Shown: positions 45,401-60,432, numbered from the stretch's first letter. The stretch is DNA of 64,000 nt from Alphaproteobacteria bacterium (GCA_045221335.1 JBGUWS010000014.1:70261-134260), one strand, 5' to 3'. Numbers and translations: made by a program. The notes: a model not told the origin generated them from the letters alone.

Positions 45401-48400
45401 TAATGCTAATCTGACAATCTTAAATAAAATTTCCAATAATGGTACCATAACTTCAAAAGCAAATAACATAAGCACCACAAATGGTATTATAAATAATGGT
45501 ATACTCAATTTAACTGGCGGAGAGAACACAAATGCAATAACTGGTACAGATGGCGTTATTTACCTAACTAATACCGGAAGTAACAGTGCCTCAATTACCC
45601 AAAACAGTATAATTAATTCCGGAACATATACAAATAACGGTACAATCAATGGGTTATTTGATAATAGTAATGCAACGTTAGAAAATAATAGTGAAATTAG
45701 TTTAATAACCATGGATGGAGGTAACTTAAATAACGGCACAAACGGTACCATCCTGGCAACAGACTTAATCAGTGGTAATGTAATTAATGCCGGTTCTATA
45801 AACAACACCGGTCGCATGATAATAGAAAGCAGTGACACCTATACAAATACCGGCTATATTGCTAATTCCGGCGATTTAACAATTAAAGGAACAAAAGAAA
45901 TCGGACAGATTACAGGATTAGGGGACTCAACAACAGGAAATATTGTTTTGGGAGATACCTCGACAGATATTTCGACAGTTAACAAAGATATTGCTCAGCA
46001 AACAATAACCTTAAATAATGGAACGCTCAAATTTGCTGCCACAGGTTCTTTAACAGATAATGTTGCATTTATTGGTAACAACGGTACTTTGGATACTCAA
46101 AATAGCACAATAAATACAATATCTCTTGGTGCGGTCACATTAAATAGTAACATTATGTGGGCAATAGACGCTGATTTAGCAAATATGACAGCAGATAATG
46201 TAACCGGCAACGCAAATCCATCCGGTTCAGGAAAATTAGTAATTAATGCAATAAACCTTCTTTCGGACGGTAATTATAAATATATAGAAACCAAAGTTGC
46301 AGATAATAATCTAAAAGGTATTATTGCGTTAGCTTCAGATCAATTTATTGTTAATAATTTAGCTGGAAACGGAAGTTACCTTGTTACTTATCAAGCAAAA
46401 ACGGATGGTGGATATTTAACCTTTGATAATTCTGATATGAATAACCTTGTTATTGCTGCACGAAAAGAAGGTAGTGTTGTTTACAGTATGTCTCAAAATG
46501 AAAGTATCGAAACAGATTTAGCAGCTATTCCCGACGATATAACAAATGCTATAGGTAACCAAATAGCCGATGATTATACAATTAATGGCAATGGTCATAG
46601 CATTGATGGTGCCAACAAAGGTGGTATAATAACTTCTGCAACACAAGTTTTAACATTAAATAATATTAGTGAAGTTAAAGATTTTTCAGGGAATGCAATT
46701 ACGAATGCAGGTACACTAAATATCAATGCGCAAACAACAGATACAGTATTTAACAGCACAGCAGGCATCAAAAATACGGGAGATTTAATCTTAAATGCCG
46801 CAGAAGGCCAAAAAATAACAATTGCCGGAGCAATAACCGATGACACTGTTACTAAAGGGGTAACAACCGTCAAAGGAGATGGAATTACCAATATAAATAA
46901 TAGTATTACTCAAGATAAATTGCTCATTGAATCAGGCACCGTCAATGTTTCTGCCTCAAATTTGAATATAGATGAGTTCATACAAAATGACAGTATTCTA
47001 AATTTAGATGAAGGAATATTAAGTTCAATCATTAAGGGTAATAATGGAACAACAAATATTGTAGGAGAAGTTACTAATAACGCGTCAATCACTCAAAATG
47101 AAATAACTATTGAGGAGACTGCCAAACTGACGACCAATGCCAGTGATATAACCAGTGTAAGCGGTATAGATAACAACGGTACATTAGAGTGGATAGGTTC
47201 AGGAGAAAACAACAATATTATTTTAAGCAGCAATAATGAGGGTATAATAGAAGTTAAAGGCACTGTTCAAAATAATCAAAGCGTGACGCAAAATAAGATT
47301 ATAATAGCCGGTAACAATGCGGAACTAATTTCTAATGCTGATAATTTAAGTACGATTGAGGGAATTGAAAATAACAGTCTTTTAACTTTAACAGGCGGTC
47401 AGAATACCAATAAAATTGATGGTACAGGTAAGCTTGTTATTAAGACAGATAATCAAGTAGAAAATGAAGCGTTGATAAAACAAAAACAAATTACGGTAGA
47501 AGAAGGAACATTGATAAGTGATGTTGCCAATTTAGTAACAACAGAGAATATAAAAGTTTCCGACTTGTTGCGTTTAACCGGAACAGGTGATAATACAAAT
47601 CGAATTATAGGTAACGGTACGACAGAAATTGCGGGAACATTGACAACTTCAAACACAATCAGTTCTAACTTAGCCATTTCAGGAACATTAACAACTTCAG
47701 CTGATAAACTGGATATAGCATCAAAGAGCTTAAAAGGCGCCGGAGGAACATTAGACTTAAGCGTTAATGATAAATATGCAGAGGTGTTAACAGTAAAAGA
47801 GCTTGATCTAAACGAGGGTAATCTTAATTTGATAATAGATGTTGACCTTGCTAACAAGCAAGCTGATCAATTAAATGTAACAAGCATCTCCGGGTCAAAT
47901 AAATTAGTTATAAATGGCTTTAATCTTATAAGTGATGCACAAGAGAATTTACCAATTACAACAACAGTATTAACCGTAAATGACACATCAGAAGCCGAAA
48001 AACTAAGCCAGAATGTAGAGTTACAGGGTGCCCCGGTAACAATCCAAGGTGAAATTCCTGAATATAGCTACCTGGTTTCATATATTGTAAAAGATTTAAC
48101 AGGTAATTTACAATTTGAGTACGCAAATCTGGCAACAGCAATTATTTTTGATGCAGAGCAAAAAGTTTATACAATGGCCAACGAGGAAAGCTTAAGCGAA
48201 GAAAAAGAAATGCAAGGAAAGAATTTAAGCATTTGCGGTAACGGGAACGCCATTACGGGAGACGGAACAAATAACGGTATCAGAATTGGAAATGATCAAA
48301 CATTATCAATTAATGATGTCAACAGTATGCAAGAATTTGATCAAGCCATTGTAAATGATGGTGGTACAGTTAACCTTAAAAATGTAAGTTTCACAAATAA

Positions 48401-50438
48401 CACGGTAGATGTTAATAACAATAGCATATTAAATTTAGAAGGAAATAATGTACTACAAGACGGCATTATCGGAGATAATGGTAAAACAAACATTATTTCA
48501 GGCGAAACAACACTTTCAGGCGAAACAACGCAAGAAACAATTACCGTTTCTGATGCAACATTAAATAATCAAGGAATTATCAGTGCTGCTATCAATAACG
48601 CCGGTACAATTAATAATGAAAACGAACTTAAAATGAACGGCACATCAGTAAATACAGGTAAGATTAGTGGAAATGGCACTTTAACAGTCAATGGAACTCT
48701 AGAAAACACCGAAGATACAGCTTCTATTGTTCAAGATAAAGTACAGATTACGGAAAACGGCGAATTAACATCAGATAATGACAAAATCAGCGCATATATC
48801 GTTAATGACGGTATCTTCAATATGAGCGGTGCGGAAAATAATAATATCGTGGACGGAACAGGAATTGTTAATATTAACTCCAGTATGAGGCTTAATGAAC
48901 AAATAGGAGGAACAAACACGATAAACGTCAATGAAGGTGTATTAACCTTTGCTGATAATGAAGCTTTAGGGAGCAATGTTAAATTAAACGCCAACAAAGG
49001 TAGTTCTATAGACGTCGAAAATAATCAGATGAGCGTAGATCAGGTGGTATTTAAAGAAGGCTCAACCTTAAAATTAAAAGTAAATAGTCTTTCTGATTTT
49101 GGTTCGATTATAGCAAATACAATAAATGTCGAGCAAGGAGCTAATCTGTTTGCTGTTCTAGGGCAGGGATTGATTGAAGTCGGTCAGGAAGGAAGAATTC
49201 AGCTCTTAACAGCTAATAACAGTGATTTTAATAACTTTAGTGACAGTTTTGAAAATAACATGTACCGTTTTGAAAAAGACGGCAAAAATGGTGCATACAT
49301 CATTTCACAAGCCAGAACAGCAGAGGATGTCCTAAAAGAAGCAAATGCCAACAAGGATATTGTTGGTGCTGGACACGCTTGGATAGATGGTTCTCAGTTC
49401 CCGGATGAAAATAGTCAGGAAGTTGCAGATAAACTAACAGAATTAGCACAGACAGATGCCCATAAGCTTATAAAGGCATTAAAAGGTCTTGCACCTAACG
49501 ATGCCCCGATAGTAAAAACCTTAGCAATTGAACGGGCCTCTTATCTGTCAGATATGTTGCAAAATCATATTTATAACCGTTCAGAAGAACAATCCGCACA
49601 AGGTCTCTCATCTAATATTTCAGCACTGGATGCATCAGTTTGGATAAAGACATATGCCGCACGTTCTACCATAGCAGCAGACGATAATGCCGGAGGATTT
49701 AATATCAACCGCCAGGGAGCCGTATTAGGCATAGATAAGAAGGTAAATTCAGATACCTTAGTCGGTATGGGTTATGGTGCGGATACAACAAAAGCAAAAT
49801 CACATGATCACAATGATAAGGTACAAACCCATAGTTTGTTTGCTTATACGCGATATAAGCCAAATGATTGGTACATGGAAAGCTTAGCGGCATACAGCCA
49901 ATCTCAATATAATGAAACAAAGCAAAGTGTTTCAACCATCCGTGCAAAATATGATGTAAAAGACCTATTCTTTAAGGTAGATAACGGTTATGAGTTTAAT
50001 ATAAAAGATGCAATTATAACACCGGAATTGAGCTTAAGATATCATTATATAAAACGAGACGGATATAAAGATAGTGCAGGCCAAAAAGTTGATGCAAATA
50101 ATCTACAGGTCTTCACACCTGTGGTCGGTGTAAAAGCTTCTACAGAATTTGAGATAGATGAAAATAAACTCTCAAGGAAAGCAACCGTAAGGCCGGAAGT
50201 TTATGTTGGGGCAGGATATGATGTCAAATCAGATAATGAAAACTCCTTTGTAAGCTTGCCTAACGGAGAATCTTACGTTTATCATGGCAATCAATTAGAT
50301 AAGTTCTTTATAGAAACAAAAGCCGGTGTCAAAGCAAGTTTCACGGATGATGTTGACGTAGGTCTCTGGTATCTTGGAAATTACCGCGGAAATTACCAAT
50401 CTCACGCAGGAATGGTCGAGCTGAAAGTAAGATTTTAA
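39432..50438 (+). CDS. Giant type Va autotransporter (3668 aa) with Pmp/POMP repeats, reiterated ~38-aa and ~130-aa passenger modules, and C-terminal beta-barrel
   Basis: Signal peptide (LLLGVLANVSYTYA). Many FxxN/GGAI-type repeats and periodic (I/L)SG(D/N)I(S/T)NN...YGG(I/M)IYN units. Four copies of a ~130-aa DVDL... module. C-terminal ~300 aa paralogous to the first autotransporter's translocator, ending ...VELKVRF. Confidence 0.85.
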   Translation: MMKVKYKKVFKLTLLLGVLANVSYTYAAEQYVDDYNSLIAAISGAQDGDIIILNNSIEVTGALSSINKNITIDGQGLYGIYSSSLGGFTVSAGKNVTFKNIGQATVNLETGEVTYVEHSGLQGFHKSYTAALRNNGTLTLDNVVFYGNDGANGHGRAMYNSSSGTILSIKGKFLNNTNGSGTLANYGNIAYVKADFVGNSGGQHGGAILNNKGAKIQEIRDSNFIANSSARSGGAIRNLDGANEVTIYDSLFRFNNSRQGGAIKNSDESKAIIYNSLFDRNYAIYDSPDSPAASRPGGGAISNTDGKVYITDSQFTNNAAENNGGAILSDGLLYIYAKEKDVEFKNNKSLATISNAGANATVSGGVYNDLYLLKNAEINANAGKNIIFNGSVVNAVNTVVLSLNNDASIQGGNYIFNNEVTNGIFNIYNGAAVKFGTYNQVDGSVSYGKLNGVSFSNDTKGGTIDFQNNHIDDQVLTDLTLNSDIDIKLDVDLVNGISDYFSANTYTGNGKLNIVGINILSDNPIDLATKVSNSVLKDAITLSIATVDGPSLSYSILYDTSQNDGGYLRFSSGEMTNLVIVNRAEAKHRFYSLGSDENIAADIAEIGDGSTSIGEMGGVTGTIFTINGNSDYSINGENYAEITVKSGKTLNVDNVGSLEANGDVKAAWQGFKGTLFSVSSGTLNFTGDNVIANNTAIDKESLISNNGGTITVSDGSLNILNNSYHASLINNTNGTIGDFNTLIKSNLVNTGTGSLYGLIYNNAGSGKTAKIGELSGEISNNVITNSNGNLYGGIIYNYSKGTAEIDKITALFQGNQISTSALYGGLIRNQAEGGAVKIGDITGDIKENTLAFKNDTYGAIISNKATTKNAEIGNISGNITNNTINMSGNKSLYGIIQNEGNSGGTAKILGISGDISNNSINGNNNNSLLGGMIYNCAKSANAEIGEISGDIKNNSFKMGSMEGSIISNKNTSGYDAIIDAISGNIEENMIIVTNTIDGGIIYNQSQINSISGKIINNYIESKNATLNGGVLFNDASGNILMTSDIENNYVKGADITNSDGGIIYNSGTLTLSDVSLKDNATNLENTISNSGNLSIIANNKDVVFAGNKVGATITRNETTGEVSVTGGDALDIRNSGSSVLNLFAKTGKSIIFEGAITDDDNQATANIGGTYDDNGTEKNYEGSVIFKNTVALSTLNIKNNANIILGVNGTQFGLLNLGTLTNDAKNGSINSINNHIENHQITKATLNSALNIGIDMSVATDLTTEADTFTLGADSTGTFNIADLNMLGDGIAAFKASTESKEIIQKILNNANSNTILTLSNTVKSAYEEEIADELVEDVDEITGSTVKYNEKYGEYELTRQRALEVSIVGSSQGLADAIRWAITVTDSDKIYKDDTLHLINIASGTNRVFDFDGTTNTFNVTENTGTTAVGKLTILGTQNGTAYSTIDADGHSLFDITTSGAAVDIQNTKIKNAEYIADVTSGNVLTLSNVIIDNTNTKGITGTGTTVISGGKTVLSAESNQNLLTINSNGELENNAKFTLADKISNSGTLTSIADNIVTENGIENEGVINFIGGENLNNISGTNGTVNFSDTSINSGTIEQKIITNSNSLTSDAGTLKASAGIQNTGNLYLTGGITQSIISGENGTIHTMGSVTIGKAINNNVLSLDSGSTKLGITDLSTAQKLVINGGDLNLQYLSSTEDYNLGNVEILEDMGLGIDVDLTGNTAIKKVDTISATTVSGSKKIYINNLNITVPSPGDEAPTYSKVADNNLKDSVDLGDNAKTHVNNISQNGFMITYEKDTEGENTGGFLHLTYADLVTAARATTRSRIYVMGSADEDVVSQLDEQGGTGITDNNHLFGGVSLSVNGTGIQSIIGSGTTGGIQLAGTQTLSLNNIKEYTGFSTGITNYGTVNVTNVDFIGNTIDINNNTVLNLYGTDELKTITGDTGTINIASYVDGDNQTINAEVTFATDGNITQKDIVIAENNVLENNANLTILNKISNNGTITSKANNISTTNGIINNGILNLTGGENTNAITGTDGVIYLTNTGSNSASITQNSIINSGTYTNNGTINGLFDNSNATLENNSEISLITMDGGNLNNGTNGTILATDLISGNVINAGSINNTGRMIIESSDTYTNTGYIANSGDLTIKGTKEIGQITGLGDSTTGNIVLGDTSTDISTVNKDIAQQTITLNNGTLKFAATGSLTDNVAFIGNNGTLDTQNSTINTISLGAVTLNSNIMWAIDADLANMTADNVTGNANPSGSGKLVINAINLLSDGNYKYIETKVADNNLKGIIALASDQFIVNNLAGNGSYLVTYQAKTDGGYLTFDNSDMNNLVIAARKEGSVVYSMSQNESIETDLAAIPDDITNAIGNQIADDYTINGNGHSIDGANKGGIITSATQVLTLNNISEVKDFSGNAITNAGTLNINAQTTDTVFNSTAGIKNTGDLILNAAEGQKITIAGAITDDTVTKGVTTVKGDGITNINNSITQDKLLIESGTVNVSASNLNIDEFIQNDSILNLDEGILSSIIKGNNGTTNIVGEVTNNASITQNEITIEETAKLTTNASDITSVSGIDNNGTLEWIGSGENNNIILSSNNEGIIEVKGTVQNNQSVTQNKIIIAGNNAELISNADNLSTIEGIENNSLLTLTGGQNTNKIDGTGKLVIKTDNQVENEALIKQKQITVEEGTLISDVANLVTTENIKVSDLLRLTGTGDNTNRIIGNGTTEIAGTLTTSNTISSNLAISGTLTTSADKLDIASKSLKGAGGTLDLSVNDKYAEVLTVKELDLNEGNLNLIIDVDLANKQADQLNVTSISGSNKLVINGFNLISDAQENLPITTTVLTVNDTSEAEKLSQNVELQGAPVTIQGEIPEYSYLVSYIVKDLTGNLQFEYANLATAIIFDAEQKVYTMANEESLSEEKEMQGKNLSICGNGNAITGDGTNNGIRIGNDQTLSINDVNSMQEFDQAIVNDGGTVNLKNVSFTNNTVDVNNNSILNLEGNNVLQDGIIGDNGKTNIISGETTLSGETTQETITVSDATLNNQGIISAAINNAGTINNENELKMNGTSVNTGKISGNGTLTVNGTLENTEDTASIVQDKVQITENGELTSDNDKISAYIVNDGIFNMSGAENNNIVDGTGIVNINSSMRLNEQIGGTNTINVNEGVLTFADNEALGSNVKLNANKGSSIDVENNQMSVDQVVFKEGSTLKLKVNSLSDFGSIIANTINVEQGANLFAVLGQGLIEVGQEGRIQLLTANNSDFNNFSDSFENNMYRFEKDGKNGAYIISQARTAEDVLKEANANKDIVGAGHAWIDGSQFPDENSQEVADKLTELAQTDAHKLIKALKGLAPNDAPIVKTLAIERASYLSDMLQNHIYNRSEEQSAQGLSSNISALDASVWIKTYAARSTIAADDNAGGFNINRQGAVLGIDKKVNSDTLVGMGYGADTTKAKSHDHNDKVQTHSLFAYTRYKPNDWYMESLAAYSQSQYNETKQSVSTIRAKYDVKDLFFKVDNGYEFNIKDAIITPELSLRYHYIKRDGYKDSAGQKVDANNLQVFTPVVGVKASTEFEIDENKLSRKATVRPEVYVGAGYDVKSDNENSFVSLPNGESYVYHGNQLDKFFIETKAGVKASFTDDVDVGLWYLGNYRGNYQSHAGMVELKVRF

Positions 50439-50440
50439 AA
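50390..50440 (+). repeat. Direct repeat copy A (3' end of the autotransporter CDS); partner at 51213-51263
   Basis: 51 bp with 3 mismatches versus copy B. Both copies encode NYQSHAGMVELKVRF* (differences synonymous). Confidence 0.8.
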
Positions 50441-50589
50441 TAAATTATTTCGATCATTAAAATAAAAGATAACGATTTTTTATGTTTTTGAGTGTTACGC
50501 ATCTCATCTTGATATTTTAATTGACTAATTAGCGAAAAGATGCCACCATTTCAGAAAAGTGTGTATCGGCAAATAGAACGGAGGCAAAT

Positions 50590-51213
50590 ATGGCAATCGG
50601 TAAAGCACTTAAAAACTTATGGAATTATTTATTTAGTTCTGATGACGAAAATCAGGTCACGCCAGCAGATCCGCAAGAAGATAAAGCCGCAACGAAAAAG
50701 ATATATACATATAAAGATATAGAATTTATTCATGATAACTATAGCGGTATGACTTATGCAAATATGGATTTTAACAATGGCTACCATATGTATATTTCGG
50801 TTGAAGATTACAGTGATGACTTAGAAAACCATGAATCACCAGCCGGATATGAAATAACAATCTTTGATAGCAAAGGCAGAAGGAACAGTACTTGTTTAAA
50901 TAAAGACGGAAAAGATCTTGTTGCATATAACAAAAGTGCCGTGACAACATTGATGAAACAAATTCAACAATTGGATGAAAAAGGGCATATATCCGCAACG
51001 CATGATGCAACGAGGATTCAGGCCAGAAAACAATATTTATTGAAAAAGCAAAAGGATAGAAAAGCATACAAAAAGAGCCATCCGGAAGATGATGTTTCCG
51101 GCGTTATACTTGCTGATGAAATTGCGAAAAGTATTATTTCGGGGAGCGAAAAAAGAAAGATTACTCCTGCAGTTGCCCGTGAATATAAAGCGAAATTGTC
51201 GCGTCATCAATAA
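50590..51213 (+). CDS. Hypothetical protein (207 aa) with acidic N-terminal half and Lys-rich C-terminal half, inserted between duplicated autotransporter 3' ends
   Basis: Strong GGAGG RBS 6 nt upstream. No recognisable domain. Confidence 0.5.
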   Translation: MAIGKALKNLWNYLFSSDDENQVTPADPQEDKAATKKIYTYKDIEFIHDNYSGMTYANMDFNNGYHMYISVEDYSDDLENHESPAGYEITIFDSKGRRNSTCLNKDGKDLVAYNKSAVTTLMKQIQQLDEKGHISATHDATRIQARKQYLLKKQKDRKAYKKSHPEDDVSGVILADEIAKSIISGSEKRKITPAVAREYKAKLSRHQ

Positions 51214-51263
51214 AATTACCAATCTCATGCTGGAATGGTCGAGCTGAAAGTAAGATTTTAAAA
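51213..51263 (+). repeat. Direct repeat copy B (orphan autotransporter 3' end remnant)
   Basis: See copy A. It begins exactly at the stop codon of the 207-aa ORF. Confidence 0.8.
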
Positions 51264-51295
51264 CAAAAAAACCTGTTAAGTATCCAGAAGTATCC

Positions 51296-51464
51296 GCAAT
51301 TCTCGAGCTGAAATTTTTGGATTTTTTGAGCCGGTTAACTTCAGATTGTTATGAATCCGAAGTTGATTTTATGAGATTTTTTGTAAAGCTGGAGTGTGCT
51401 TGCAATACACGAGCCAATCATTTGATTATGGAGATATTTTAAGGTTACGGGGTGGATTTCAGAT
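51296..51464. repeat. Two tandem degenerate copies (R1a, R1b) of an ~85-bp intergenic repeat family
   Basis: Shared core ggagtgNgcttgca....cgag.taaaatttt....tttttaac..atgggtg....gaacca.a.gt.gat..aaat..cagc; related copies at 53023-53100 and 53723-53807. R1b overlaps the last codons of the GT-C gene. Confidence 0.55.
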
Positions 51465-52905
51465 ATGAGAATTTCCCGATTTTTTGATAATCTTTCAGTG
51501 TGTCCATGCTTATAAAATGTTTCTTAAATATCTCTTGTTGGTCGGCATCAAAGGCATCATTTAATGTTTGGTATTCACGCGATGACCAATCGGGGAAATA
51601 ATAAACAAAGTTCATTGGATATTGTTTATTCAACAAGTTTACATCATAATTTGGAATAGGGTGGAAATAAATGTCGTGTACCGCCTCGGTCGGAATATGG
51701 CTCCAATAATATGAAGGGCGTTCGGAAAATATGCCGGAGACAATCGTAATGCCGTATTTTTCTTGATCCAATAACTTCATAATCTTGGATTTATTTAAGG
51801 GTTTAGATAGTGATGATAATCCGATTAGGGTGAAAGATAAGGTGATATAAATAGAAGCGATGAATAGGATTTCTTTTTTATAGATCAGCGGTGCAGCAAC
51901 CATTGCGGCATAAATAATCAGCATCAGATAATGCTGTCCGTAACGACAAATGGAAAAGCATCGGATACCTTCACCGATACATAAAAAGACTAAAATCCAC
52001 CAATAACGATTATGTTTTTTGTTTTTAATATACCAGCAAATAGCGGCTAAAGCCATACCTAAAACCAGCAGAAAATCAAAGAAACAATAATTATATATTT
52101 GACTCCATAACTTAGCAAAAATAGTGTTTAATTGCCAGTTAAGTTCATAGTATTTTTCAAGACAATCTGCTTGCCACAGGGCGTAAATACCGATGCAAAG
52201 TATAAACAACGGAATGATGGCTGCTTTCAGCATATCTTTTATTTTTTGTGGATGACGATAGAGGAAATAACCAATAACCAAAACTATCAGCGCGCCCTGA
52301 AAAACGGTTGTCTGCAAGAATAAAAAGGCAAGGGTAAGCATGATGGCTGCAATTTGCAGATGTTTGAATTTTTTATATCGAAAATAACAGAATAAATAAT
52401 ATAAACCGCAGAAAAAACAACAATGTTGCCAGATATCCGGCCTGATTTGGAATAGACCGCGAACCGTAATATCACTAGCTACCCAAAAATAAAGATTAAG
52501 GCATATCAATGCGCAAATTTTTCCGCCGATGAATTTTTTTTCTATCTTGTAAATATAATAACCGGTTAAAAGCGAAACGCCAAAACAGATTATTCTGCCG
52601 ATATAAACGGCAAGCACAGTGTTATGCGGAATTATTGTTATCATCGGGGCTAAAATATACCATAATAAAGGGTGATGATGCTCGAAAAAATCACGATACG
52701 GCATGTCGCCGAGAGTAATAAAATAGGCGGCGCGCAAATGTTCGATATCATCAAAAATAAATAATTTTGAGGTAAATATTTTGGCTATGGTATAAATAAG
52801 GTTAAGACCCAGCAAAATCAGCAGGATAATGATATCATTGTTTGAATCGGTGCTATTGTCTGTTTTACCAGGTGACAATAGTCGGCGGTTTTTTGTTTCG
52901 GTCAT
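51445..52905 (-). CDS. GT-C fold membrane glycosyltransferase (ArnT/PMT_2-like)
   Basis: About 11 TM helices. First periplasmic loop DDIEHLRAAYF...GDMPYRDFFEHHHPLLWY resembles the ArnT/PMT DE..Y ... YFEKPPLLYW region. Confidence 0.5.
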   Translation of the reverse strand: MTETKNRRLLSPGKTDNSTDSNNDIIILLILLGLNLIYTIAKIFTSKLFIFDDIEHLRAAYFITLGDMPYRDFFEHHHPLLWYILAPMITIIPHNTVLAVYIGRIICFGVSLLTGYYIYKIEKKFIGGKICALICLNLYFWVASDITVRGLFQIRPDIWQHCCFFCGLYYLFCYFRYKKFKHLQIAAIMLTLAFLFLQTTVFQGALIVLVIGYFLYRHPQKIKDMLKAAIIPLFILCIGIYALWQADCLEKYYELNWQLNTIFAKLWSQIYNYCFFDFLLVLGMALAAICWYIKNKKHNRYWWILVFLCIGEGIRCFSICRYGQHYLMLIIYAAMVAAPLIYKKEILFIASIYITLSFTLIGLSSLSKPLNKSKIMKLLDQEKYGITIVSGIFSERPSYYWSHIPTEAVHDIYFHPIPNYDVNLLNKQYPMNFVYYFPDWSSREYQTLNDAFDADQQEIFKKHFISMDTLKDYQKIGKFSYLKSTP

Positions 52906-53022
52906 ACGTGGCCCTCGGTTAATGGTATAATCTTCTTTATTCTAAATAGAATGTGTTTAATAAAATGTAAAATCATTACTGAAAAACATATTAAATAGAC
53001 ATTATAACTGACATAAAAGAGC

Positions 53023-53100
53023 GCTTTGCGAGATAAAATTTGATTGTTTTTAACTTATGGGTGTTATGAACCAAAAGTTGATTATTTAAAATAATCAGCT
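53023..53100. repeat. Copy R2 of the ~85-bp repeat family
   Basis: gcgagataaaatttgattgtttttaacttatgggtgttatgaaccaaaagttgattatttaaaataatcagc. Confidence 0.55.
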
Positions 53101-53176
53101 AAAAAATAAATTTTAGAAACAAAAATTTAAGGATTTTTATCCTAAACTTTTAAAAAAGTTTAATTGTAGGTGTCAC

Positions 53177-53674
53177 ATGATGAAAGAATATAAAATTGCT
53201 ATTAATAAATATATTAAAAGTAAAGGAGAATATTTTATACGAAAGTATTTTGTTTTGCTGGTTTTAGGTATGTTTACGGCAGTGCCTGCAAAGGCGCAAA
53301 TGGCAGATGCATTAGGGACTCTTGCAATTGGTGGCGCGATGGGGGTAAATGATGCAAAAATGATTGCCAAAGGGCAGGGCAGCTTAAACGACTTGCGTTT
53401 TCAAGATGATTTGGTCCGTTTGATTACAGATGTTCAGATGAATTTAAGTGGGCAGAACATGCCGATTGATAAATCGATGATTTCTTTTAACGGCTTTCAA
53501 GGAATTGACTGGAATATCTCAAGCCAAGGTCATGAAACCGTGCTTGAATTTAATCATTTAAATGCGCGATTGTGCCTAGTCTGCAAAAATAATGAAGCTT
53601 CTGTCAATCGTGTGGAAATAAACGGCGGTGGAACATGCGAGGCAGAGGGTAATACTGTTAAAATGTATTTTTAA
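53177..53674 (+). CDS. Small secreted protein of unknown function (165 aa), flanked by repeat copies R2 and R3
   Basis: N-terminal hydrophobic segment with a VPAKA-Q cleavage-like site; AGGTG RBS. Confidence 0.45.
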   Translation: MMKEYKIAINKYIKSKGEYFIRKYFVLLVLGMFTAVPAKAQMADALGTLAIGGAMGVNDAKMIAKGQGSLNDLRFQDDLVRLITDVQMNLSGQNMPIDKSMISFNGFQGIDWNISSQGHETVLEFNHLNARLCLVCKNNEASVNRVEINGGGTCEAEGNTVKMYF

Positions 53675-53722
53675 AAAATATAACAAAAAAACGCCATTTC
53701 TGACGATTTTTGAACTGTGGTC

Positions 53723-53807
53723 GGAGTGAGCTTGCAGTTCTCGAGATAAAATTTTGCATGTTTTTAACTTATGGGTGTTAAGAACCAGAGGTGGAATTAA
53801 AATCAGC
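53723..53807. repeat. Copy R3 of the ~85-bp repeat family
   Basis: ggagtgagcttgcagttctcgagataaaattttgcatgtttttaacttatgggtgttaagaaccagaggtggaattaaaatcagc. Confidence 0.55.
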
Positions 53808-53872
53808 AAAAGCTTGCGGTTTATGATAAAAAATCCTAAATATTAGATATAAATGATTAAAGAGAACTTGTT

Positions 53873-54571
53873 ATGACATTAAATAAATTAGATATTCTTT
53901 CTAAAATGGCATATTTTGCAAAATGCAAAAAAACAGCTATAGTACGTATATTAGAATTTCTCATACCACTAAATGACGAACAATCTGTATTGATGAATAT
54001 TTTTTATAATGCCTATTTTACTTACTGGTTAGGGTTAGTAGATTATTTGATAAAAGATGTTTCTTTTATTAAGCAAGAAGATATAGAAAATATAGTAGGT
54101 TCTAAAGATAATTATTATTACCTTAGAAATCTAAGAAATGCGGTTATTCATAGGGCTGAGGACTTAGCTGATAAAGGAACTGTTATTAATAATACAGATA
54201 TTATAACCCCATTTTCTCCTATAGATGTTATGGATCCATTTGGAAAGAAAAAATACCAACCATTTTATAACAATTTAATACAAATCATATTAAAATGTGA
54301 AGAGATAAATGAAATATGCATAAAATTGATAAAACAATATAATTTGACAGATTATCCTGATCTTACTAAAGAAGAATTTATGGATAGGTGTAATCGTGAT
54401 CCTTATATTTCATCGTATGTAAAAACGGATGAAATATCCGAAAAATCTTGGCAACATTATTATAGCATTAAAAATGATATGAAAAAAGAAAATGTAAAAA
54501 AGATTTTATCTTATTTTGAAACTCTTAATTTATTTCAAGATGCGATAATAAAAGATAATAAGATAGATTAA
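53873..54571 (+). CDS. Hypothetical protein with Rx4H (HEPN-like) motif, candidate Abi-type RNase
   Basis: 232 aa, predicted all-helical, ~26% GC. Motif YYYLRNLRNAVIHRAED fits HEPN Rx4-6H. A paralogous motif occurs in the 248-aa protein at 60432. No other recognisable domain. Confidence 0.4.
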   Translation: MTLNKLDILSKMAYFAKCKKTAIVRILEFLIPLNDEQSVLMNIFYNAYFTYWLGLVDYLIKDVSFIKQEDIENIVGSKDNYYYLRNLRNAVIHRAEDLADKGTVINNTDIITPFSPIDVMDPFGKKKYQPFYNNLIQIILKCEEINEICIKLIKQYNLTDYPDLTKEEFMDRCNRDPYISSYVKTDEISEKSWQHYYSIKNDMKKENVKKILSYFETLNLFQDAIIKDNKID

Positions 54572-54806
54572 ATATTAGCAATAATTTTGGAGTGACTAAA
54601 ATCAAAGGCTAATTTAACTTTTATTTTTCGATAATAGAAGTTTTTCTTCCCTGTATAAGCGATTTTGGTTTTGACATAGGTTTGATTATAAAAGATAGAT
54701 TCGGTTATTATAGGGTAATTTTTGATAAGTTAATAATCGTATGAATTTATTATTTCTAAACTATTGGTGTTTTATTATATCGTAGTTTAATGGAGTGATT
54801 TATCTT

Positions 54807-55919
54807 ATGAAACCAGATATACAAAAAATATTTAGCCAATATGGAATAACCAATAAAATGCATAACGATGCATATGATTGGCAGAAAAAATATTGGGAAA
54901 TTAGTAATGAGATAAGTGGTAAGAATGAATGGGAGGACATTTGTATTGGATTTTTCGCTTATATTACACTATGGACGTTAATATTGTTTGGTTTAGCATT
55001 TCTTGATGATAAATCAAATATTTCTCAAGACTTGCTTGCTTTCCTTATTATTGTAGTTTTATTAAATATATTTTTCTACTTAATGGGAAAGCAAGAAAAT
55101 AAGAAAAAAGAAGAATATAAACATAAAATAGAAAGCCATAAATTAGAAAAAGTTCACCATTCTGAATATGAATACAAAGAACAGAAACTAGCAAGCGATT
55201 ATGAAACTGAATTAAAAAATCTTCAAAGTAAAATATTTAGAAAAAGAGTTAGTGAAACATTTAAGGATAATTTACAAAAATATAATGATTTCATAGATAC
55301 CTGTAGTTATATAAACCATTATCTTGTATTTGCTCACATAAATACTTATGAACATAGAGAATACGCTAAAAAACGAGGTTATTCTCTTGTTACAAATAAT
55401 TATTCTTCTTTAAGTAAAAAAATACTTCCTAAAATTGAAGAAGATTATTCTTCATCTAAGCCTATAGAAAGCAAAAGTATTAAAAGTAAATTTAATCCTC
55501 AAAAAATAGATTGGCTTGAACTTAATAAATCTAATGCCAAATTAGGAGAATATGGGGAAAGCATAATTATAGATTTGGAAAAGGAATATCTGATAGAAAA
55601 CGGATTAAAAGATTTATCTGAAAAAATAGAATGGGTATCACAGACCAAAGGGGACGGAGCAGGATATGATATTTTATCATATGATACAGGCGGAAATTGT
55701 AAATATATAGAAGTTAAAACTACATGTGTGTCGGAAAACGAACCTTTTTATGTAAGTGATAATGAATTGAATTTTATTAAAACACATTTGGATAATTATT
55801 TTATATATCGTTTGTATATCGATAAAAATTCCAATACAGTAAAATTGAGAGTATTTAATTCAAGCGAATTTTTAAACTTTGCTCTTCGTCCTGTATCGTA
55901 TAAAGTTATTTTAAATTAA
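54807..55919 (+). CDS. Membrane-anchored protein with C-terminal DUF3883-like PD-(D/E)xK nuclease domain
   Basis: Two N-terminal TM helices, a K/E-rich coiled-coil linker, and a C-terminal ~130 aa with LGEYGESI, GYDILSYD, IEVKTT and SDNELNFIK. These match, as I recall it, the DUF3883 restriction-endonuclease-like consensus (D...E-V-K). Start moved to ATG 54807 (GGAG RBS). Confidence 0.55.
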   Translation: MKPDIQKIFSQYGITNKMHNDAYDWQKKYWEISNEISGKNEWEDICIGFFAYITLWTLILFGLAFLDDKSNISQDLLAFLIIVVLLNIFFYLMGKQENKKKEEYKHKIESHKLEKVHHSEYEYKEQKLASDYETELKNLQSKIFRKRVSETFKDNLQKYNDFIDTCSYINHYLVFAHINTYEHREYAKKRGYSLVTNNYSSLSKKILPKIEEDYSSSKPIESKSIKSKFNPQKIDWLELNKSNAKLGEYGESIIIDLEKEYLIENGLKDLSEKIEWVSQTKGDGAGYDILSYDTGGNCKYIEVKTTCVSENEPFYVSDNELNFIKTHLDNYFIYRLYIDKNSNTVKLRVFNSSEFLNFALRPVSYKVILN

Positions 55920-56183
55920 CAAATAAAATTTTAGTGCTGTAATCTATAACTCCTTGATTTTCTTATCTTCTCATCCTAAAAAGTTCGAAGATTATTTGGG
56001 GTATGGCTTATTTTATATCAAACATTCGAACTCGCCGAAAGCTATTCCGCATCCGGAAAAGATTTCCAAAGTAACGCATAAACCACTAGAGGTGCCCTTT
56101 GTATATCCCTTAGTATTTGCGCGACTAAATTTGAGATAAGCTTATCTAACACTAGTGTTATTATTGTGTCGGCTCCATACTTT

Positions 56184-56295: not shown

Positions 56296-57354
56296 ATGCC
56301 CAATATGACAGATATTATAATTACCCCGGATATGCTAAAGAAAATAGCAGAAATAGATGCTTTTAACGGAGCATTCAATAGCGGCGGTATAAAGATTAAG
56401 CCGGAGCAATTAAAAGCCATGAAACGCATTGCTACGATTGAATCTATCGGCTCTTCTAATCGTATTGAGGGCAATAAGCTAAACGATACAGAGGTGGAAG
56501 AAGTCTTTAACCGTATCAGCAAAAAATCTTTTCAAACGCGCGATGAGCAAGAAGTTGCCGGTTATGCCGATTTGCTTTCAACGATTTTTGAAAATTACAA
56601 AGAAATAAATTTATCGGAAAACTACATTCGGCAGTTGCATAAAATTTTGCTTTCATATTCTGACAAAGACGAGCATCATCGCGGCGAATATAAAAAAGAT
56701 TCAAATCGCGTGGCAGCCTTTGATGCCAACGGTAAAGAAATCGGCACGATTTTTGAAACAGCCACGCCGTTTGATACACCGCGTTTAATGCAAGAGCTTG
56801 TTAATTGGACGAACATCAATTTTAACGATGGCTACTTCCACCCGATTATCACTATCGGCGTGTTTGTGGTGCATTTTTTATCAATACACCCTTTTACCGA
56901 CGGAAACGGTAGAATGTCACGTGCATTAACGACCTTGCTTATGCTACAACATGGCTATAATTATATGCCTTATTCATCATTGGAATCAATTATTGAAGCC
57001 AGTAAAGATGCGTATTACAGAGCTCTGCGCGCTACGCAAAAGACAATCTGGAGCGATAAGGTAAATTATGAGCCGTGGCTGACATTTTTTATTACCTCAC
57101 TTGCTAAGCAAAAACGGCATTTAGAAGATAAAATTGCCTTTGCCACTAAAACCGATAATACCAGAATTACCAAAGGCGAGCAAGCCGTTTTAGACCTTTT
57201 TGAAGATAAGACAAATTGGTCGGTGGCAGAAATGGCGGAAACTTTAAGTAAAAACAGTGAGACCGTCAAAAAGACCGTGCAAAATTTAGTAAAGAAAAAT
57301 ATGCTTGAAAAACAAGGCTCCACCAAGGGCACATACTACATTTTGAAGGGGTAA
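56296..57354 (+). CDS. Fic/DOC family protein, class II (N-terminal inhibitory SxxxEG helix) with C-terminal winged-helix domain
   Basis: Canonical Fic motif HPFTDGNGRMSRAL. Upstream inhibitory-helix motif SSNRIEGN, i.e. (S/T)xxxE(G/N). C-terminal ~90 aa wHTH-like. Start chosen at MPNMTD (AAGGAA RBS) rather than the ORF-track 56155. Confidence 0.8.
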   Translation: MPNMTDIIITPDMLKKIAEIDAFNGAFNSGGIKIKPEQLKAMKRIATIESIGSSNRIEGNKLNDTEVEEVFNRISKKSFQTRDEQEVAGYADLLSTIFENYKEINLSENYIRQLHKILLSYSDKDEHHRGEYKKDSNRVAAFDANGKEIGTIFETATPFDTPRLMQELVNWTNINFNDGYFHPIITIGVFVVHFLSIHPFTDGNGRMSRALTTLLMLQHGYNYMPYSSLESIIEASKDAYYRALRATQKTIWSDKVNYEPWLTFFITSLAKQKRHLEDKIAFATKTDNTRITKGEQAVLDLFEDKTNWSVAEMAETLSKNSETVKKTVQNLVKKNMLEKQGSTKGTYYILKG

Positions 57355-57377
57355 AACCTATCGATTCTTTTTTTTCT

Positions 57378-57410
57378 GGCTCTATGTCTTATTGCATAGA
57401 GCCTTTTTTA
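57378..57410 (+). terminator. Rho-independent terminator after fic (ggctctatg-tcttattg-catagagcc + T6)
   Basis: Perfect 9-bp stem and a T-run. Confidence 0.75.
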
Positions 57411-57500
57411 TGAAAATTGGTAAATAAGCTCAATTATCACTTGCTTTTCAGAGTGTTTAGGGTAAAATCGCCATTATATTGTAACTTTTGGGACTTTTAG

Positions 57501-59987
57501 ATGACGATAACACCGGAAGAAAAAGCAAGAGAAAAAATAGATGAACAACTGATAAATGCCGGTTGGATAATACAGAACCGTGAGGATTTTGACCGCACAG
57601 CTAGTTTAGGCGTGGCTGTTCGCGAGTTTTTGATGGACGATAACACAGAAGCTGACTATCTTTTGTTTGTAGATGGCAAAGCCTGCGGTGTTATAGAAGC
57701 AAAGAAAGCCGGTGTTGCTTTAAGTGGTGTTGAAAATCAGTCGCACGGATATGCTTGTCATCTACCGGAATATGTTAAAAATTGGCAGATGCCGTTGCCT
57801 TTTATTTACGAGAGCACTGGTGATGAGACTTTCTTTTGTGACGGGCGAGATAAAATCTGCCGTTCTCGTCGCATTTTTGCCTTTCACTCACCTCAATCAT
57901 TGCTAAATATGCTTGAAGAGGCAAGCACTTTGCGCAATCGCTTACAAAATATGCCTATACTGGAAAAAGGCTCTTTGCGTGATTGTCAATTTGAAGCCAT
58001 TGAAGGCTTAGAAAAATCATTAGCGGAAGGCAATCAAAAAGCACTTATTCAAATGGCTACCGGTGCCGGAAAAACTTTTACGGCTTGTAATTTTTCATAT
58101 CGCTTGCTTAAATATGCCGGAGCGAAGCGTATTTTATTCTTGGTAGACCGCAATAATCTCGGCAAACAGACCAAAAAAGAGTTTGAAAACTTTCGCCTTC
58201 CTGATGTAAATCGCCTGTTTCCGGAAGTTTATATTGCTCAGCACTTGCAACATAATAAGGTTGATTCTGATGCCAAAGTTGTGATTACCACCATTCAACG
58301 GCTTTATTCCATGTTGTGCGGTGAAGAAGATTATGATGAGGCGGACGAAGATGCTTCCGCTTACGAGCTCGGTTCAATGGGTGCGCCTAAAGAAGTTAAT
58401 TATAATTCTGCTCTTCCGCCGGATTATTTCGATTTTATCATAACTGATGAATGTCACCGCAGTATTTACGGCGATTGGCGGCAGGTTTTGGAATATTTTG
58501 ATGCTTTCATTATCGGTTTGACAGCTACGCCATCTAAGCAAACCTTTGGTTATTTTAACCGCAACATTGTTGCTGAATATCCGTATGAACGCTCGGTTGC
58601 TGATGGTGTTAATGTAGATTATCAGGTTTTACGCATTAAAACCAAAATCAGCGAAGATGGTGGCAAAATTGACAAATCTTTTCCTGTGCCATTGCGTAAT
58701 AAGAAAAGCCGTAAGATAACTTATGAGCAGCTGGACGAAGATTTAGAGTATAAAAAGAATGACTTAGACCGTTCTGTCCTCGTGCCAAATCAAATTCGCA
58801 CCATTATGGAGTGTTATAAAAATTCGCTTTATACCGAGCTGTTTCCGGAACGTGAGCCGAATTTTGCGTGGACACCGAAAACGCTTATTTTTGCCAAAGA
58901 TGACAATCATGCCGAAGAGATTGTCCGCATCACAAGAGAAGTTTTCGGGCAAGGCAATGATTTTTGCAAAAAGATTACCTATAACGTTACCGGTGAAAAG
59001 CCGGAAGAACTGATTAAGCAGTTTCGTGTTTCCCCTCTGCCGCGTATTGCCGTAACGGTGGATATGATTGCCACCGGCACGGATATTAAGCCTTTGGAAG
59101 TGGTAATGTTTTTGCGTGATGTTCGCTCATCGCTTTATTATGAGCAGATGAAAGGTCGTGGCGTTCGTTCCATTAATGATACAGACTTAAAGCAGGTAAC
59201 ACCGAATGCCGAAGGTAAAAGTTTCTTTTATTTGATTGATGCCGTTGGTGTAACCGAGAGTAAAAAGACCGCTTCACAACCATTGGAGCGCAAACGCTCG
59301 GTTTCGTTAAAGAAGCTTTTAGAGCAAGTAGCACAAGGCAAAACTGATGATGACACATTGAGCACGCTTGCCGGACGCATTGTCAATATAGAGCGCAACT
59401 TAAATGACGAAGAAAAAGACAAGATAAAAGCTCTAACCGGAGGCAAGCTGTTGCATGAAATTGCCGGCAATATTCTTGATGCCATAGAGCCGGACAAGCT
59501 TGAGGGCAAAACCGCCAAAGAGATAGAAAAAATCAAAGATGATGCGGTTAAACCGTTTAATAAATCAAGTTTGCGGCAAACTTTGCTTGATATGAGTGCC
59601 AAAACCGGCATTTACATTGATGAACTGGCGCAAGATGAAGTTATTTCTGCGGATATCAACGGAGAAAAAGCTAAAAATATCATCACTTCGTTTAAGGAAT
59701 TTATAGAAGCCAATAAAGATGAAATTGACGCACTTTCTATCATTTATAATGTGCAATATGGCAAGAGAAACCTGACTTATGCCAATATCCGTGAACTGGC
59801 AGAAAAAATGCGTGAGGCACGTCCGCCTTTGGCACCGATAGAAATTTGGCGTGCGTTTGAGCTATTAGAAAAAGATAAAGTCCAACATGTTAAAAATCCG
59901 GTGCGGTTGCTGACCAACTTGGTGCAACTGGTGCGTTTTGCCATCGGGCAAGATGATAAATTGGAAGAGTTTGATAAACGAGTTTAA
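57501..59987 (+). CDS. hsdR: Type I restriction enzyme R subunit (N-terminal PD-(D/E)xK nuclease + SF2 helicase + HsdR-type C-terminal helical region), possibly 3'-truncated
   Basis: HSDR_N-like D...EAK (DYLLFVDGKACGVIEAKK). Helicase motifs I QMATGAGKTFTA, II ITDECHRS, III GLTATP, VI QMKGRGVRS. The stop lies exactly where out-of-frame hsdM-homologous sequence begins. Confidence 0.75.
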   Translation: MTITPEEKAREKIDEQLINAGWIIQNREDFDRTASLGVAVREFLMDDNTEADYLLFVDGKACGVIEAKKAGVALSGVENQSHGYACHLPEYVKNWQMPLPFIYESTGDETFFCDGRDKICRSRRIFAFHSPQSLLNMLEEASTLRNRLQNMPILEKGSLRDCQFEAIEGLEKSLAEGNQKALIQMATGAGKTFTACNFSYRLLKYAGAKRILFLVDRNNLGKQTKKEFENFRLPDVNRLFPEVYIAQHLQHNKVDSDAKVVITTIQRLYSMLCGEEDYDEADEDASAYELGSMGAPKEVNYNSALPPDYFDFIITDECHRSIYGDWRQVLEYFDAFIIGLTATPSKQTFGYFNRNIVAEYPYERSVADGVNVDYQVLRIKTKISEDGGKIDKSFPVPLRNKKSRKITYEQLDEDLEYKKNDLDRSVLVPNQIRTIMECYKNSLYTELFPEREPNFAWTPKTLIFAKDDNHAEEIVRITREVFGQGNDFCKKITYNVTGEKPEELIKQFRVSPLPRIAVTVDMIATGTDIKPLEVVMFLRDVRSSLYYEQMKGRGVRSINDTDLKQVTPNAEGKSFFYLIDAVGVTESKKTASQPLERKRSVSLKKLLEQVAQGKTDDDTLSTLAGRIVNIERNLNDEEKDKIKALTGGKLLHEIAGNILDAIEPDKLEGKTAKEIEKIKDDAVKPFNKSSLRQTLLDMSAKTGIYIDELAQDEVISADINGEKAKNIITSFKEFIEANKDEIDALSIIYNVQYGKRNLTYANIRELAEKMREARPPLAPIEIWRAFELLEKDKVQHVKNPVRLLTNLVQLVRFAIGQDDKLEEFDKRV

Positions 59988-60432
59988 TCTGCATACGGTG
60001 TTGCGCTTGCCTACCGGTATTTTTTATGCGCAGGGTGTTAAGGCTAATGTTATTTTCTTTGATAAATATCCGCCACTTGATAAAGGACACCGCACAAATG
60101 ATGTGTGGTTCTATGACTTACGCACCAATATTAATTTAAGCTTGGTTACAAACTCTTTGAATGACAGCCATTTAGCAGACTTTATTAAGTGCTATAATGC
60201 AGATAATATTATGGCGAGGACAGAGAGCGAACGCTTTAAGAAGTTTACTTATGACGAAATTATCAAACGCGATAAGGTAAGCCTTGATATTACTTGGCTC
60301 AAAGACGAGAGTTTAGAGAGTCTTGAAAATCTGCCGGAACCGGAAATTTTGGCAGATGAAATCGTTGATAATCTGGAAACAGCACTGGATTCATTCAAAA
60401 ACGTGCTGACAGAGTTACAGAAAGCAGAGTAA
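59938..60432 (+). pseudogene. hsdM: Remnant of type I methyltransferase gene: C-terminal ~150 codons only, N-terminal catalytic domain deleted
   Basis: The translation from ~59980 (NLHTVLRLPTGIFYAQGVKANVIFFDK...VWFYDLRTN...SLDITWLKD...LPEPEILADE) closely matches the C-terminal region of EcoKI-type HsdM as I recall it. No SAM-binding or NPPY/F region is present upstream. Confidence 0.7.

Follow-up and report, generated by a model that had tools for sequence, protein, structure and literature searches.

A stretch of 64,000 nucleotides (nt) from an Alphaproteobacteria bacterium (GCA_045221335.1, JBGUWS010000014.1:70261-134260), referred to here as the window, carries between positions 51,296 and 53,807 four copies of a repeat of about 85 nt, which we call R1a, R1b, R2 and R3. 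We believe, with a probability of roughly 60%, that these repeats are junctions akin to attachment (att) sites within a tandem array of integrase-less gene cassettes located at the 3′ end of a tRNA-Gln(UUG) gene. The repeat modules probably also supply each cassette with a terminator, and with a leader or promoter. A previous sequence-only reading of this DNA had proposed that the repeats could be recombination sites delimiting cassettes, mobile miniature elements, or repeated promoter or terminator modules. The first of these proposals is now the best supported, given that homology between loci breaks at the element, that cargo genes are swapped, that the element contains a copy of the tRNA end, and that the array abuts tRNA-Gln.

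The repeats occupy the low-GC end of the window, where the guanine-plus-cytosine (GC) fraction is 0.26-0.29 around 53-56 kilobases (kb), compared with about 35% for the window overall. When the copies are compared only with each other, R2 (53029-53097) and R3 (53742-53808) are 81% identical over 70 nt (E = 5e-12), and R1a (51296-51369) aligns with gaps to either of them at 67.6% over 74 nt (E = 3e-4). R1b matches R3 only in the latter's 5′ third, at 73.5% over 34 nt (E = 0.09), which is not significant from the window alone. As an independent test, an nhmmer profile was built from 10 copies taken from other organisms, with no window sequence included, and was searched against the entire 64 kb. 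It returned exactly four matches (R3, R2, R1a and R1b), the next best having E = 0.34, and no further copy of the element was found by this profile in the other ~50 kb. The four copies proposed by the sequence-only reading are therefore borne out at their places, as is its view that R2 and R3 bracket a small secreted-protein gene, which probably starts at 53180. Its statement that R1b overlaps the 3′ codons of a GT-C glycosyltransferase gene holds only in part. The alignable portion of R1b ends 16 nt before the stop codon (51445-51447), and it is the strongly decayed remainder (about 51430-51470, recognised by eye only) that lies over the last five codons.

Relatives of the element were sought with a degenerate core pattern in GTDB, using one genome per species, and metagenomes were scanned as well. 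The GTDB scan produced 14 loci, 12 or 13 of which are true homologues, nearly all from metagenome-assembled genomes (MAGs) of uncultured gut or rumen Alphaproteobacteria with GC contents of 29-40%. Among the 11 metagenome matches, five are true loci; the other six, together with genome locus L008 (loci carry L numbers throughout), proved to be chance matches to unrelated coding sequence and were rejected. The family amounts to about 17 contigs from gut or rumen Alphaproteobacteria MAGs and metagenomes. Profile searches of the related loci revealed extra and more diverged copies, such that several loci hold two or three, and the copies inside one locus have a single orientation with no exception. 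Look-ups of exact proteins gave a sole match, the 3.2-kb Logan contig L001, which is 99.97% identical to the window. Loci L007 and L012 bear modules yet are labelled Bacilli and Gastranaerophilales, and the block in L012 is 94% identical to that of alphaproteobacterial L010; these labels could reflect mis-binning or transfer between phyla. Public contigs of the clade tend to stop at the tRNA-Gln array or within it (L027 and L045 at their starts, L001 at both ends), and assembly breaks are expected at this location because of the repeats and the strain variation found there.

Alignment of the copies reveals a modular architecture. Module A reads TGGCTGGAGTGAGCTTGC(R)(R)TTCTCGAG(M)TAAAATTTTG, and it is followed by module B, TTAAC-TTNNGGNT-GTTAR-GAAYCNGAGGTTGA (also written TTAAC-N8-GTTAR..GAGGTTGA), which contains two nested imperfect inverted repeats. 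Copies with both are denoted A.B, and both A-only and B-only copies are found. A gene can also be situated between the two modules; L010, L012 and L021 have it on the opposite strand, and L006 has it on the same strand. In its own version of this arrangement, the window has R1b, the minus-strand GT-C gene and R2 in succession, the order A, minus-strand gene, B that recurs in L010, L012 and L021. By inspection, a sigma-54 promoter in module A was rejected on the grounds that its TGG...TTGC spacing is N4 rather than N5 and that TTGC is not conserved. Likewise, module B was considered as an alphaproteobacterial LexA box and as a dif/Xer site, and both were set aside, by inspection only, because the half-site spacing is unfit (8 nt, where dif has 6).

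A module of ~170 nt, termed LA, is found upstream of many copies; it combines a long hairpin (GTTCGAA...TTCGAAC) with a terminator hairpin and is present in L005, L011, L014, L017 and L020, among other loci. Both stems carry compensatory changes, with many in the terminator hairpin. The long hairpin reads GTCCGTG/CACGGAC in the window and GTTCGGA/TCCGAAC in L011, and TTCGAA motifs recur in LA, which could serve as a protein-binding arm or as a structure of a 3′ untranslated region. On the 3′ side of module B are conserved leaders of a few types (alpha, beta, gamma and delta) that extend to shortly before the next start codon. Among 21 distinct B copies, 10 are followed on the same strand by an open reading frame (ORF) of at least 100 amino acids (aa) that starts 75-215 nt 3′ of B, the 75-nt distance for R3 being taken from coordinates. 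The full order of a junction on the plus strand is terminator or LA, a tRNA core of 7-11 nt, module A, module B, leader and cargo.

The core provides the link to the tRNA gene. The first 7-11 nt of module A are a copy of the 3′ end of tRNA-Gln(UUG) (TGGCTGG-AGTG): full A copies open with TGGCTGGAGTG, and the tRNA 3′ end, when reverse-complemented, reads TGGCTGGGG(C/T)G. Past the first 11-12 nt of the element, no tRNA similarity above background was detected in local alignments compared with 500 shuffles. Because the similarity is confined to 11 nt, the boundary is a sharp junction rather than a decayed gene copy. The only tRNA among the module-bearing loci is tRNA-Gln(UUG), and in L005, L011, L017 and L045 it sits on the opposite strand with its 3′ end pointing towards the elements and LA abutting it. 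The window has the same geometry. All of its copies are on the plus strand, within the ~10 kb that separate the tRNA from the end of a gene for a 3668-aa autotransporter. The 3′ end of the tRNA, CCAGCCA (TGGCTGG on the plus strand), faces the repeats, and a full LA adjoins that 3′ end, as is characteristic of tandem island arrays anchored at a tRNA or transfer-messenger RNA (tmRNA) gene.

Comparison of junctions across the family places the boundary with some precision. One LA sequence adjoins the tRNA in L005 and A.B in L020 and L006, and identity stops directly after TGGCTGG. Copies without LA are bordered by unrelated chromosomal sequence, and the transition lies no more than about 3 nt from TGGCTGG; examples are a ruvC terminator in L013 and, in L002, L003, L009, L015 and L026, other genes. 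This is how the outermost junction of an array should look. Direct repeats of the tRNA 3′ end, in gene orientation, are thus present at unit boundaries at the level of the family. In two arrays, longer genuine fragments of tRNA-Gln follow LA and replace module A. One in L015 (about 440-490, minus strand) is 14 nt long, and one of about 20 nt in L013 (5200-5225) is broken in the T-loop. These longer fragments imply use of the same arrays by further integrases that cross over at different positions.

Gene content turns over at the repeats. In pairwise BLAST comparisons, gene content differs between genomes, and the breaks in homology coincide with A, with the core, or with the end of either B or the leader. 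The window and metagenome contig L026 share a block at 89% identity that extends from inside the A module of R2 (53021) to the end of the B module of R3 (53798), whereas the neighbours differ on both sides. In L026, a 90%-identical version of the secreted protein is flanked by two element copies, and the upstream neighbour is a PolyA_pol/HD-domain (CCA-adding-enzyme-like) gene instead of the GT-C gene. The window and L009 share a left flank of A.B-beta and a right flank of alpha (window flanks 53723-53856 and 54641-54728), with a different gene between, such that L009 carries a 349-aa PDC-S31-like gene in place of the 232-aa ORF of the window. Similarly, an A-gene-B-alpha block is 94% identical in L010 and L012, and the sequences before and after it differ. 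Across the module-bearing loci, no more than three protein families recur; each of them is confined to two loci, and none is commonly found beside the element.

The cassette units are small (0.6-2.5 kb), and their cargo, which is different in every locus, is mostly of the defence or island type, with restriction-modification prominent. Examples include EcoRI restriction-modification (R-M), Dcm plus NgoBV, type I and type IIG R-M, McrBC, DUF4238, PIN and bPH-domain proteins, SoFic, PD-T4-1/PDC-S36, PDC-S18, PDC-S31 and PDC-S34.

In relatives, the exact tRNA position at which this array is anchored is used by recombinases. MarC adjoins tRNA-Gln in the window and was employed as bait to retrieve the same neighbourhood from relatives, and in a related species, strains of that one species differ directly to the left of TGGCTGG. 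Genes encoding proteins of ~580 aa with DUF6538 and Phage_integrase domains are located at the tRNA-Gln end in L031 (3971-5716), L036 (2349-4067) and L049 (4467-6230). At the same end, L029 (2579-4315) and L032 (4330-5925) have large serine recombinases whose ORF overlaps the tRNA end. In these relatives, the tRNA-Gln(UUG) gene is an active insertion site and a hotspot. The integrase-proximal arms of L036 and L049 contain ATTAGCAG-N4-5-ATTAGCAG repeats, and that of L036 matches, at 81% identity, the sequence flanking an A.B copy in L007, a locus without an integrase. This likeness suggests that an integrase-bearing element has decayed inside an array.

From these observations we infer that the A.B/LA cassettes themselves have been moved by site-specific recombination, by an enzyme supplied in trans. 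A circular cassette with LA-core-A-B as its attachment site would recombine with the CCAGCCA-3′ end of the tRNA gene, and the insertion would rebuild the tRNA gene and supply its terminator. Each new insertion would push the previous junction outward, and repeated insertion would generate an array of the form flank-core-[A.B-cargo-LA]-core-[A.B-cargo-LA]-core-tRNA. Cassettes may afterwards be shuffled or deleted through homologous recombination among the module copies. Since the cassettes have no recombinase, they would depend on one encoded elsewhere, as do cis-mobilizable elements (CIMEs).

A number of results weigh against this proposal. No recombinase gene was detected in the window array by Pfam comparison of window ORFs or by a regular expression for box II of tyrosine recombinases. 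In the ~140 kb of module-bearing loci, none was found either, with the serine type not strictly ruled out; that search combined Pfam comparison (86 locus ORFs, with the best 25 families listed, and 10 cargo ORFs), the box II expression, and tblastn with three tRNA-Gln DUF6538 integrases. The integrase-bearing elements at tRNA-Gln in relatives have no A.B, LA or alpha modules, and therefore no enzyme is tied to the cassette family. In the MarC-anchored contexts of relatives, LA occurs only in L045, and no autonomous A.B/LA element was found. Neither an excised circle nor an empty site was seen, viral contigs gave 0 matches in three pattern scans (B, A and LA-core), and the full LA-A.B-alpha junction had no blastn match among phages and plasmids. 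The tRNA-derived core is short (7-11 nt), and the cores of the window are degraded, with that of R3 reading TGGTCGGAGTG and a core search of the window matching only the tRNA. Because of this degradation, the link to the tRNA is drawn from the family and not from the window by itself. Finally, some breakpoints separate A from B or follow B or the leader, which a single crossover site would not explain, and for this reason homologous recombination between modules probably contributes to the mosaic.

It is tempting to consider a more elaborate form of the cassette model, in which A.B/LA are the sites of a dedicated, integron-like capture system whose primary site is the tRNA-Gln 3′ end and whose recombinase is encoded elsewhere. 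In a clade of gut Alphaproteobacteria, such a system would accumulate single-gene defence cassettes that each bring a leader and a terminator of their own, and module B (TTAAC-N8-GTTAR) would act as a second crossover site, thereby explaining the genes inserted between A and B. We consider this version speculative and rather improbable.

The alternative that deserves the most careful consideration holds that the repeats are expression and homology modules that involve no site-specific recombination. The spacer would be kept because it ends one cassette and drives or regulates the following one, module B would be the operator of a shared regulator, and RecA-dependent exchange of cassettes between portable blocks of homology would occur after DNA uptake. 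The minimal mobile elements of Neisseria have been proposed to be exchanged between conserved flanks after DNA uptake in a manner of this kind, and alternative genes between the same flanks are indeed found here (window versus L009, and L010 versus L012), although the Neisseria flanks are conserved genes and those described here are non-coding modules. Also consistent with this explanation are the many compensatory changes in the LA terminator hairpin, the inverted repeat in module B (TTAAC-N8-GTTAR), the conserved leader between B and a same-strand ORF 75-215 nt downstream in about half of the B copies, the breakpoints at several module edges besides the core, and the lack of a recombinase in cis. 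However, it leaves unexplained why the element starts with the 3′ end of tRNA-Gln, why unique flanks meet the element no farther than about 3 nt from that start in six or more contexts, and why longer tRNA fragments reside in the same arrays. Moreover, R1a, L011, L017 and L020 have no same-strand gene downstream, between-species identities of 70-85% are low for efficient homologous recombination, and no consensus sigma-70 promoter was found beside R2 or R3. We therefore judge this explanation unlikely on the whole, although it must be taken seriously. The promoter or terminator role suggested by the sequence-only reading is partly upheld, as a plausible secondary function, in agreement with the covarying terminator upstream and the conserved leader downstream, but it does not account for the tRNA-end identity and the sharp junctions.

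Explanations based on an RNA product fare less well. If the minus strand encoded a small RNA (sRNA) transcribed towards the LA terminator and ending in ...CACUCCAGCCA, the element might be an sRNA that mimics a tRNA end, or a decayed paralogue of tRNA-Gln. Full copies do run, on the minus strand, into a terminator-like hairpin and T-run within about 10 nt, as does genuine tRNA-Gln, and module B can form an 11-pair hairpin with pairing in 89% of cells. Yet there is no Rfam match over the element, either at the gathering threshold or at E values as high as 1 in related loci and 10 in the window region, ARAGORN reports no tRNA or tmRNA in the copies, and the covariation term from RNAalifold is 0.01. 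Of 500 shuffles, 85 reach the covariation score of the B hairpin, whose two central pairs are disrupted in 9-10 of the 21 copies, and folding energies are the same as those of shuffled sequences. Neither a match to a curated model nor covariation-backed pairs are thus at hand for a structured non-coding RNA, and the similarity to tRNA-Gln ends at 11 nt. A decayed tRNA-Gln copy can be rejected on this last ground (no similarity past the first 11-12 nt against 500 shuffles) and on the lack of any match from ARAGORN or the Rfam tRNA model. We regard an sRNA origin as improbable.

Two classes of mobile DNA are more doubtful still. A miniature inverted-repeat transposable element (MITE), or one resembling repetitive extragenic palindromes (REP-like), spread by transposition would be short, non-coding, multi-copy and present in many genomes, as this element is. 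However, terminal inverted repeats and target-site duplications were not found, every copy is in one orientation, in one array and beside one tRNA with none in the remaining ~50 kb of the window, and the modules keep a fixed order with LA and the leaders. This leaves very little to recommend the mobile miniature elements of the sequence-only reading. The attC sites of a chromosomal integron would fit the cassettes of one or two genes split by conserved repeats of ~85 nt, and the TTAAC...GTTAR of module B recalls the RYYYAAC/GTTRRRY boxes of such sites. Even so, no IntI or Phage_integrase protein was found among the window ORFs scanned and no tyrosine-recombinase motif was seen, and only 8 nt separate the boxes, which in attC sites stand at either end of an imperfect palindrome of 55-140 nt. 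In addition, the whole element folds no better than shuffles (z = -1.3 to +0.4 as single-stranded DNA, and 0.03 to 0.42 as RNA for R3), and the cassettes are not all co-oriented and have their own leader and terminator. We likewise give this identity only a very slight chance.

The features of the array that remain to be described are listed in Table 1, together with the evidence for each.

Table 1. Repeat copies, associated modules and cargo genes of the tRNA-Gln(UUG) array (positions counted from the first nucleotide of the window).
Feature	Position	Strand	Basis
R1a: decayed module A and module B	51292..51372	+	External profile 51295-51371, E = 7.1e-10
R1b: module A (51388-51429), then strongly decayed module B	51388..51470	+	External profile 51388-51429, E = 2.2e-5
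GT-C/PMT_2-like membrane glycosyltransferase, cargo between R1b (A) and R2 (A.B)	51445..52905	-	Pfam PMT_2, E = 8e-5, below curated cut-off
R2: 5′-truncated module A and module B	53008..53083	+	External profile 53021-53082, E = 5.7e-12
Small secreted-protein gene (164 aa) between R2 and R3	53180..53674	+	ORF
LA terminator part (AAAAAACGCCATTTCTGACGATTTTTGAACTG), abuts R3	53677..53720		LA profile, E = 5e-10; terminator-like on minus strand
R3: best-preserved full element (core TGGTCGGAGTG, A, B)	53715..53804	+	External profile, E = 2.2e-22
232-aa ORF, cargo	53873..54571	+	No Pfam or PADLOC match
Possible internally deleted A.B remnant (54588-54620) fused to alpha leader (54600-54730)	54588..54730	+	Upstream of NOV_C gene
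NOV_C/DUF3883-type nuclease-like defence candidate	54795..55919	+	Pfam NOV_C, E = 2e-19
Truncated LA, hairpin part only	55943..56040	+	LA profile positions 20-117, E = 1.4e-12
tRNA-side cargo block: SoFic-like Fic protein, HsdR, 164-aa HsdM fragment, 248-aa ORF	56299..61178	+	Pfam Fic, ResIII/EcoEI_R_C, N6_Mtase; PADLOC SoFic, E = 3e-49
Full LA (long hairpin and terminator), abuts tRNA-Gln 3′ end	61265..61430	+	LA profile match 61274-61430
tRNA-Gln(UUG), array anchor	61425..61499	-	ARAGORN and Rfam

The four copies differ in their state of preservation. R1a is the one most distant from the tRNA and comes directly after a remnant of the autotransporter 3′ end; it has a 10-nt GAGCCGG variant that is also present in L002 and L013. 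A different variant, CAATACACG, is common to R1b, L002 and the second copy in L014 (L014#2). R2 is without the first ~15 nt of the element and is followed by a gamma-type leader that reaches the secreted-protein gene, and its orthologue in L026 (869-949) is intact. R3 is followed by a beta-type leader that extends to about 53860, and it is 84.6% identical to L009 over 136 nt. The LA terminator segment that abuts R3 is nearly identical to the sequence beside the genuine tRNA-Gln in L005, L011 and L017. A candidate fifth copy was read by eye only, and the A.B profile gave no match there; the alpha leader to which it is fused was recognised by a profile of six external alpha copies (E = 2e-26).

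The product of the NOV_C gene also matches the PADLOC models PDC-S36 (E = 4e-40) and PD-T4-1 (E = 5e-22). The truncated LA beyond this gene is cut where the SoFic and type I R-M block starts, and the GC fraction rises there from about 0.26 to about 0.40. The type I system (57501-60432) is decayed: HsdR is full length (828 aa), the methylase is a 164-aa C-terminal fragment that overlaps the HsdR end, and no specificity subunit was seen beside them among the ORFs or by Pfam. The ORFs at 53873-54571 and 60432-61178 have a short YxxRNLRNxxxH stretch in common that resembles the Rx4-6H motif of HEPN domains; they share nothing more, and their pairwise match is not significant (E = 0.09).

Further from the tRNA, the window contains three very large ORFs, located at 13404-18824 (1806 aa), 32966-38428 (1820 aa) and 39432-50438 (3668 aa). 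Judging from its translation only, the last has GGAI-type repeats and an ending (...VELKVRF) typical of an autotransporter beta-barrel. Its final 16 codons, stop codon and 4 additional nt are repeated at 95% identity 823 nt downstream (50390-50444 and 51213-51267), and the 207-aa ORF between the two copies (50590-51213) has no Pfam or PADLOC match. This duplication looks like an insertion with a long target duplication. L001, which is the sole public contig of the strain, breaks at this repeat.

If our proposal is correct, then the repeats would constitute a compact, sequence-defined marker of a hotspot for defence and accessory genes in poorly known Alphaproteobacteria of the gut and rumen. 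Profiles of A.B, LA and the leaders would make it possible to locate such arrays in metagenomes and to catalogue very small candidate defence cassettes. The proposal would also help to account for the contigs of this clade that end at the array. Accretion at tRNA or tmRNA genes and the existence of cis-mobilizable remnants are already known in general, and the question raised by the present array is which enzyme moves integrase-less cassettes of 1-2 kb into a 7-nt tRNA end.

Several known systems invite comparison. Chromosomal integrons, such as those with Vibrio cholerae repeat (VCR)/attC arrays, contain very small cassettes that point in one direction and are separated by a conserved repeat, with the recombinase encoded outside the cassettes. 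The outcome here is similar, in that small cassettes with a conserved repeat carry cargo rich in defence functions and in genes whose function is less well known. Unlike integrons, however, this array has no IntI, no attC palindrome and no attI/Pc platform, is anchored at a tRNA, provides each cassette with its own leader and terminator, and includes some inverted cassettes.

By analogy, the closest described system appears to be the ssrA islands of Dehalococcoides (McMurdie et al. 2011). These islands are arranged in tandem downstream of one small-RNA gene and are bounded by a 20-bp direct repeat of its 3′ end; about 85 bp around the repeats show additional conservation, and one position constantly differs from the genuine gene (PMC3146451). 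Sixteen of the islands have a serine integrase, and fifteen have no integration module and are classed as cis-mobilizable elements (PMC3146451). The present array differs in that its anchor is tRNA-Gln with a core of 7-11 nt, rather than a tmRNA gene with a 20-bp repeat. Its units are much smaller, with one or two genes in 0.6-2.5 kb, it has longer conserved non-coding arms, which measure about 170 nt at one end and about 85 nt plus a leader of ~130 nt at the other, and no integration module was seen in any unit.

Related phenomena have been described for streptococcal integrative conjugative elements (ICEs) and integrative mobilizable elements (IMEs), which accrete in tandem at the 3′ end of a target gene by successive integrations into an att site that includes the gene end (PMC5704250). 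CIMEs have lost the genes for integration and transfer and have kept attL and attR (Pavlovic 2004; Bellanger 2011; reviewed in PMC5704250). These are decayed ICEs or IMEs of several kb that reside near functional relatives, whereas the cassettes described here are tiny, share their arms across many species and have no autonomous relative identified. The tRNA-anchored islands of Prochlorococcus that harbour tycheposons have likewise grown by repeated integration, with older elements pushed inward and with partial tRNA copies and degenerated elements scattered among them (Hackl et al., bioRxiv 10.1101/2020.12.28.424599). Tycheposons have tyrosine recombinases, replication modules and a tRNA att segment of about 40 nt, in contrast to the much shorter tRNA segment, the long non-tRNA arms and the lack of a recombinase in the present case. 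Units without an integrase in arrays of this kind have published precedents (PMC3146451, PMC5704250, bioRxiv 10.1101/2020.12.28.424599). What sets this array apart, in addition to there being no autonomous member found, is the combination of a tRNA-Gln anchor, a very short core, very small units and long shared arms.

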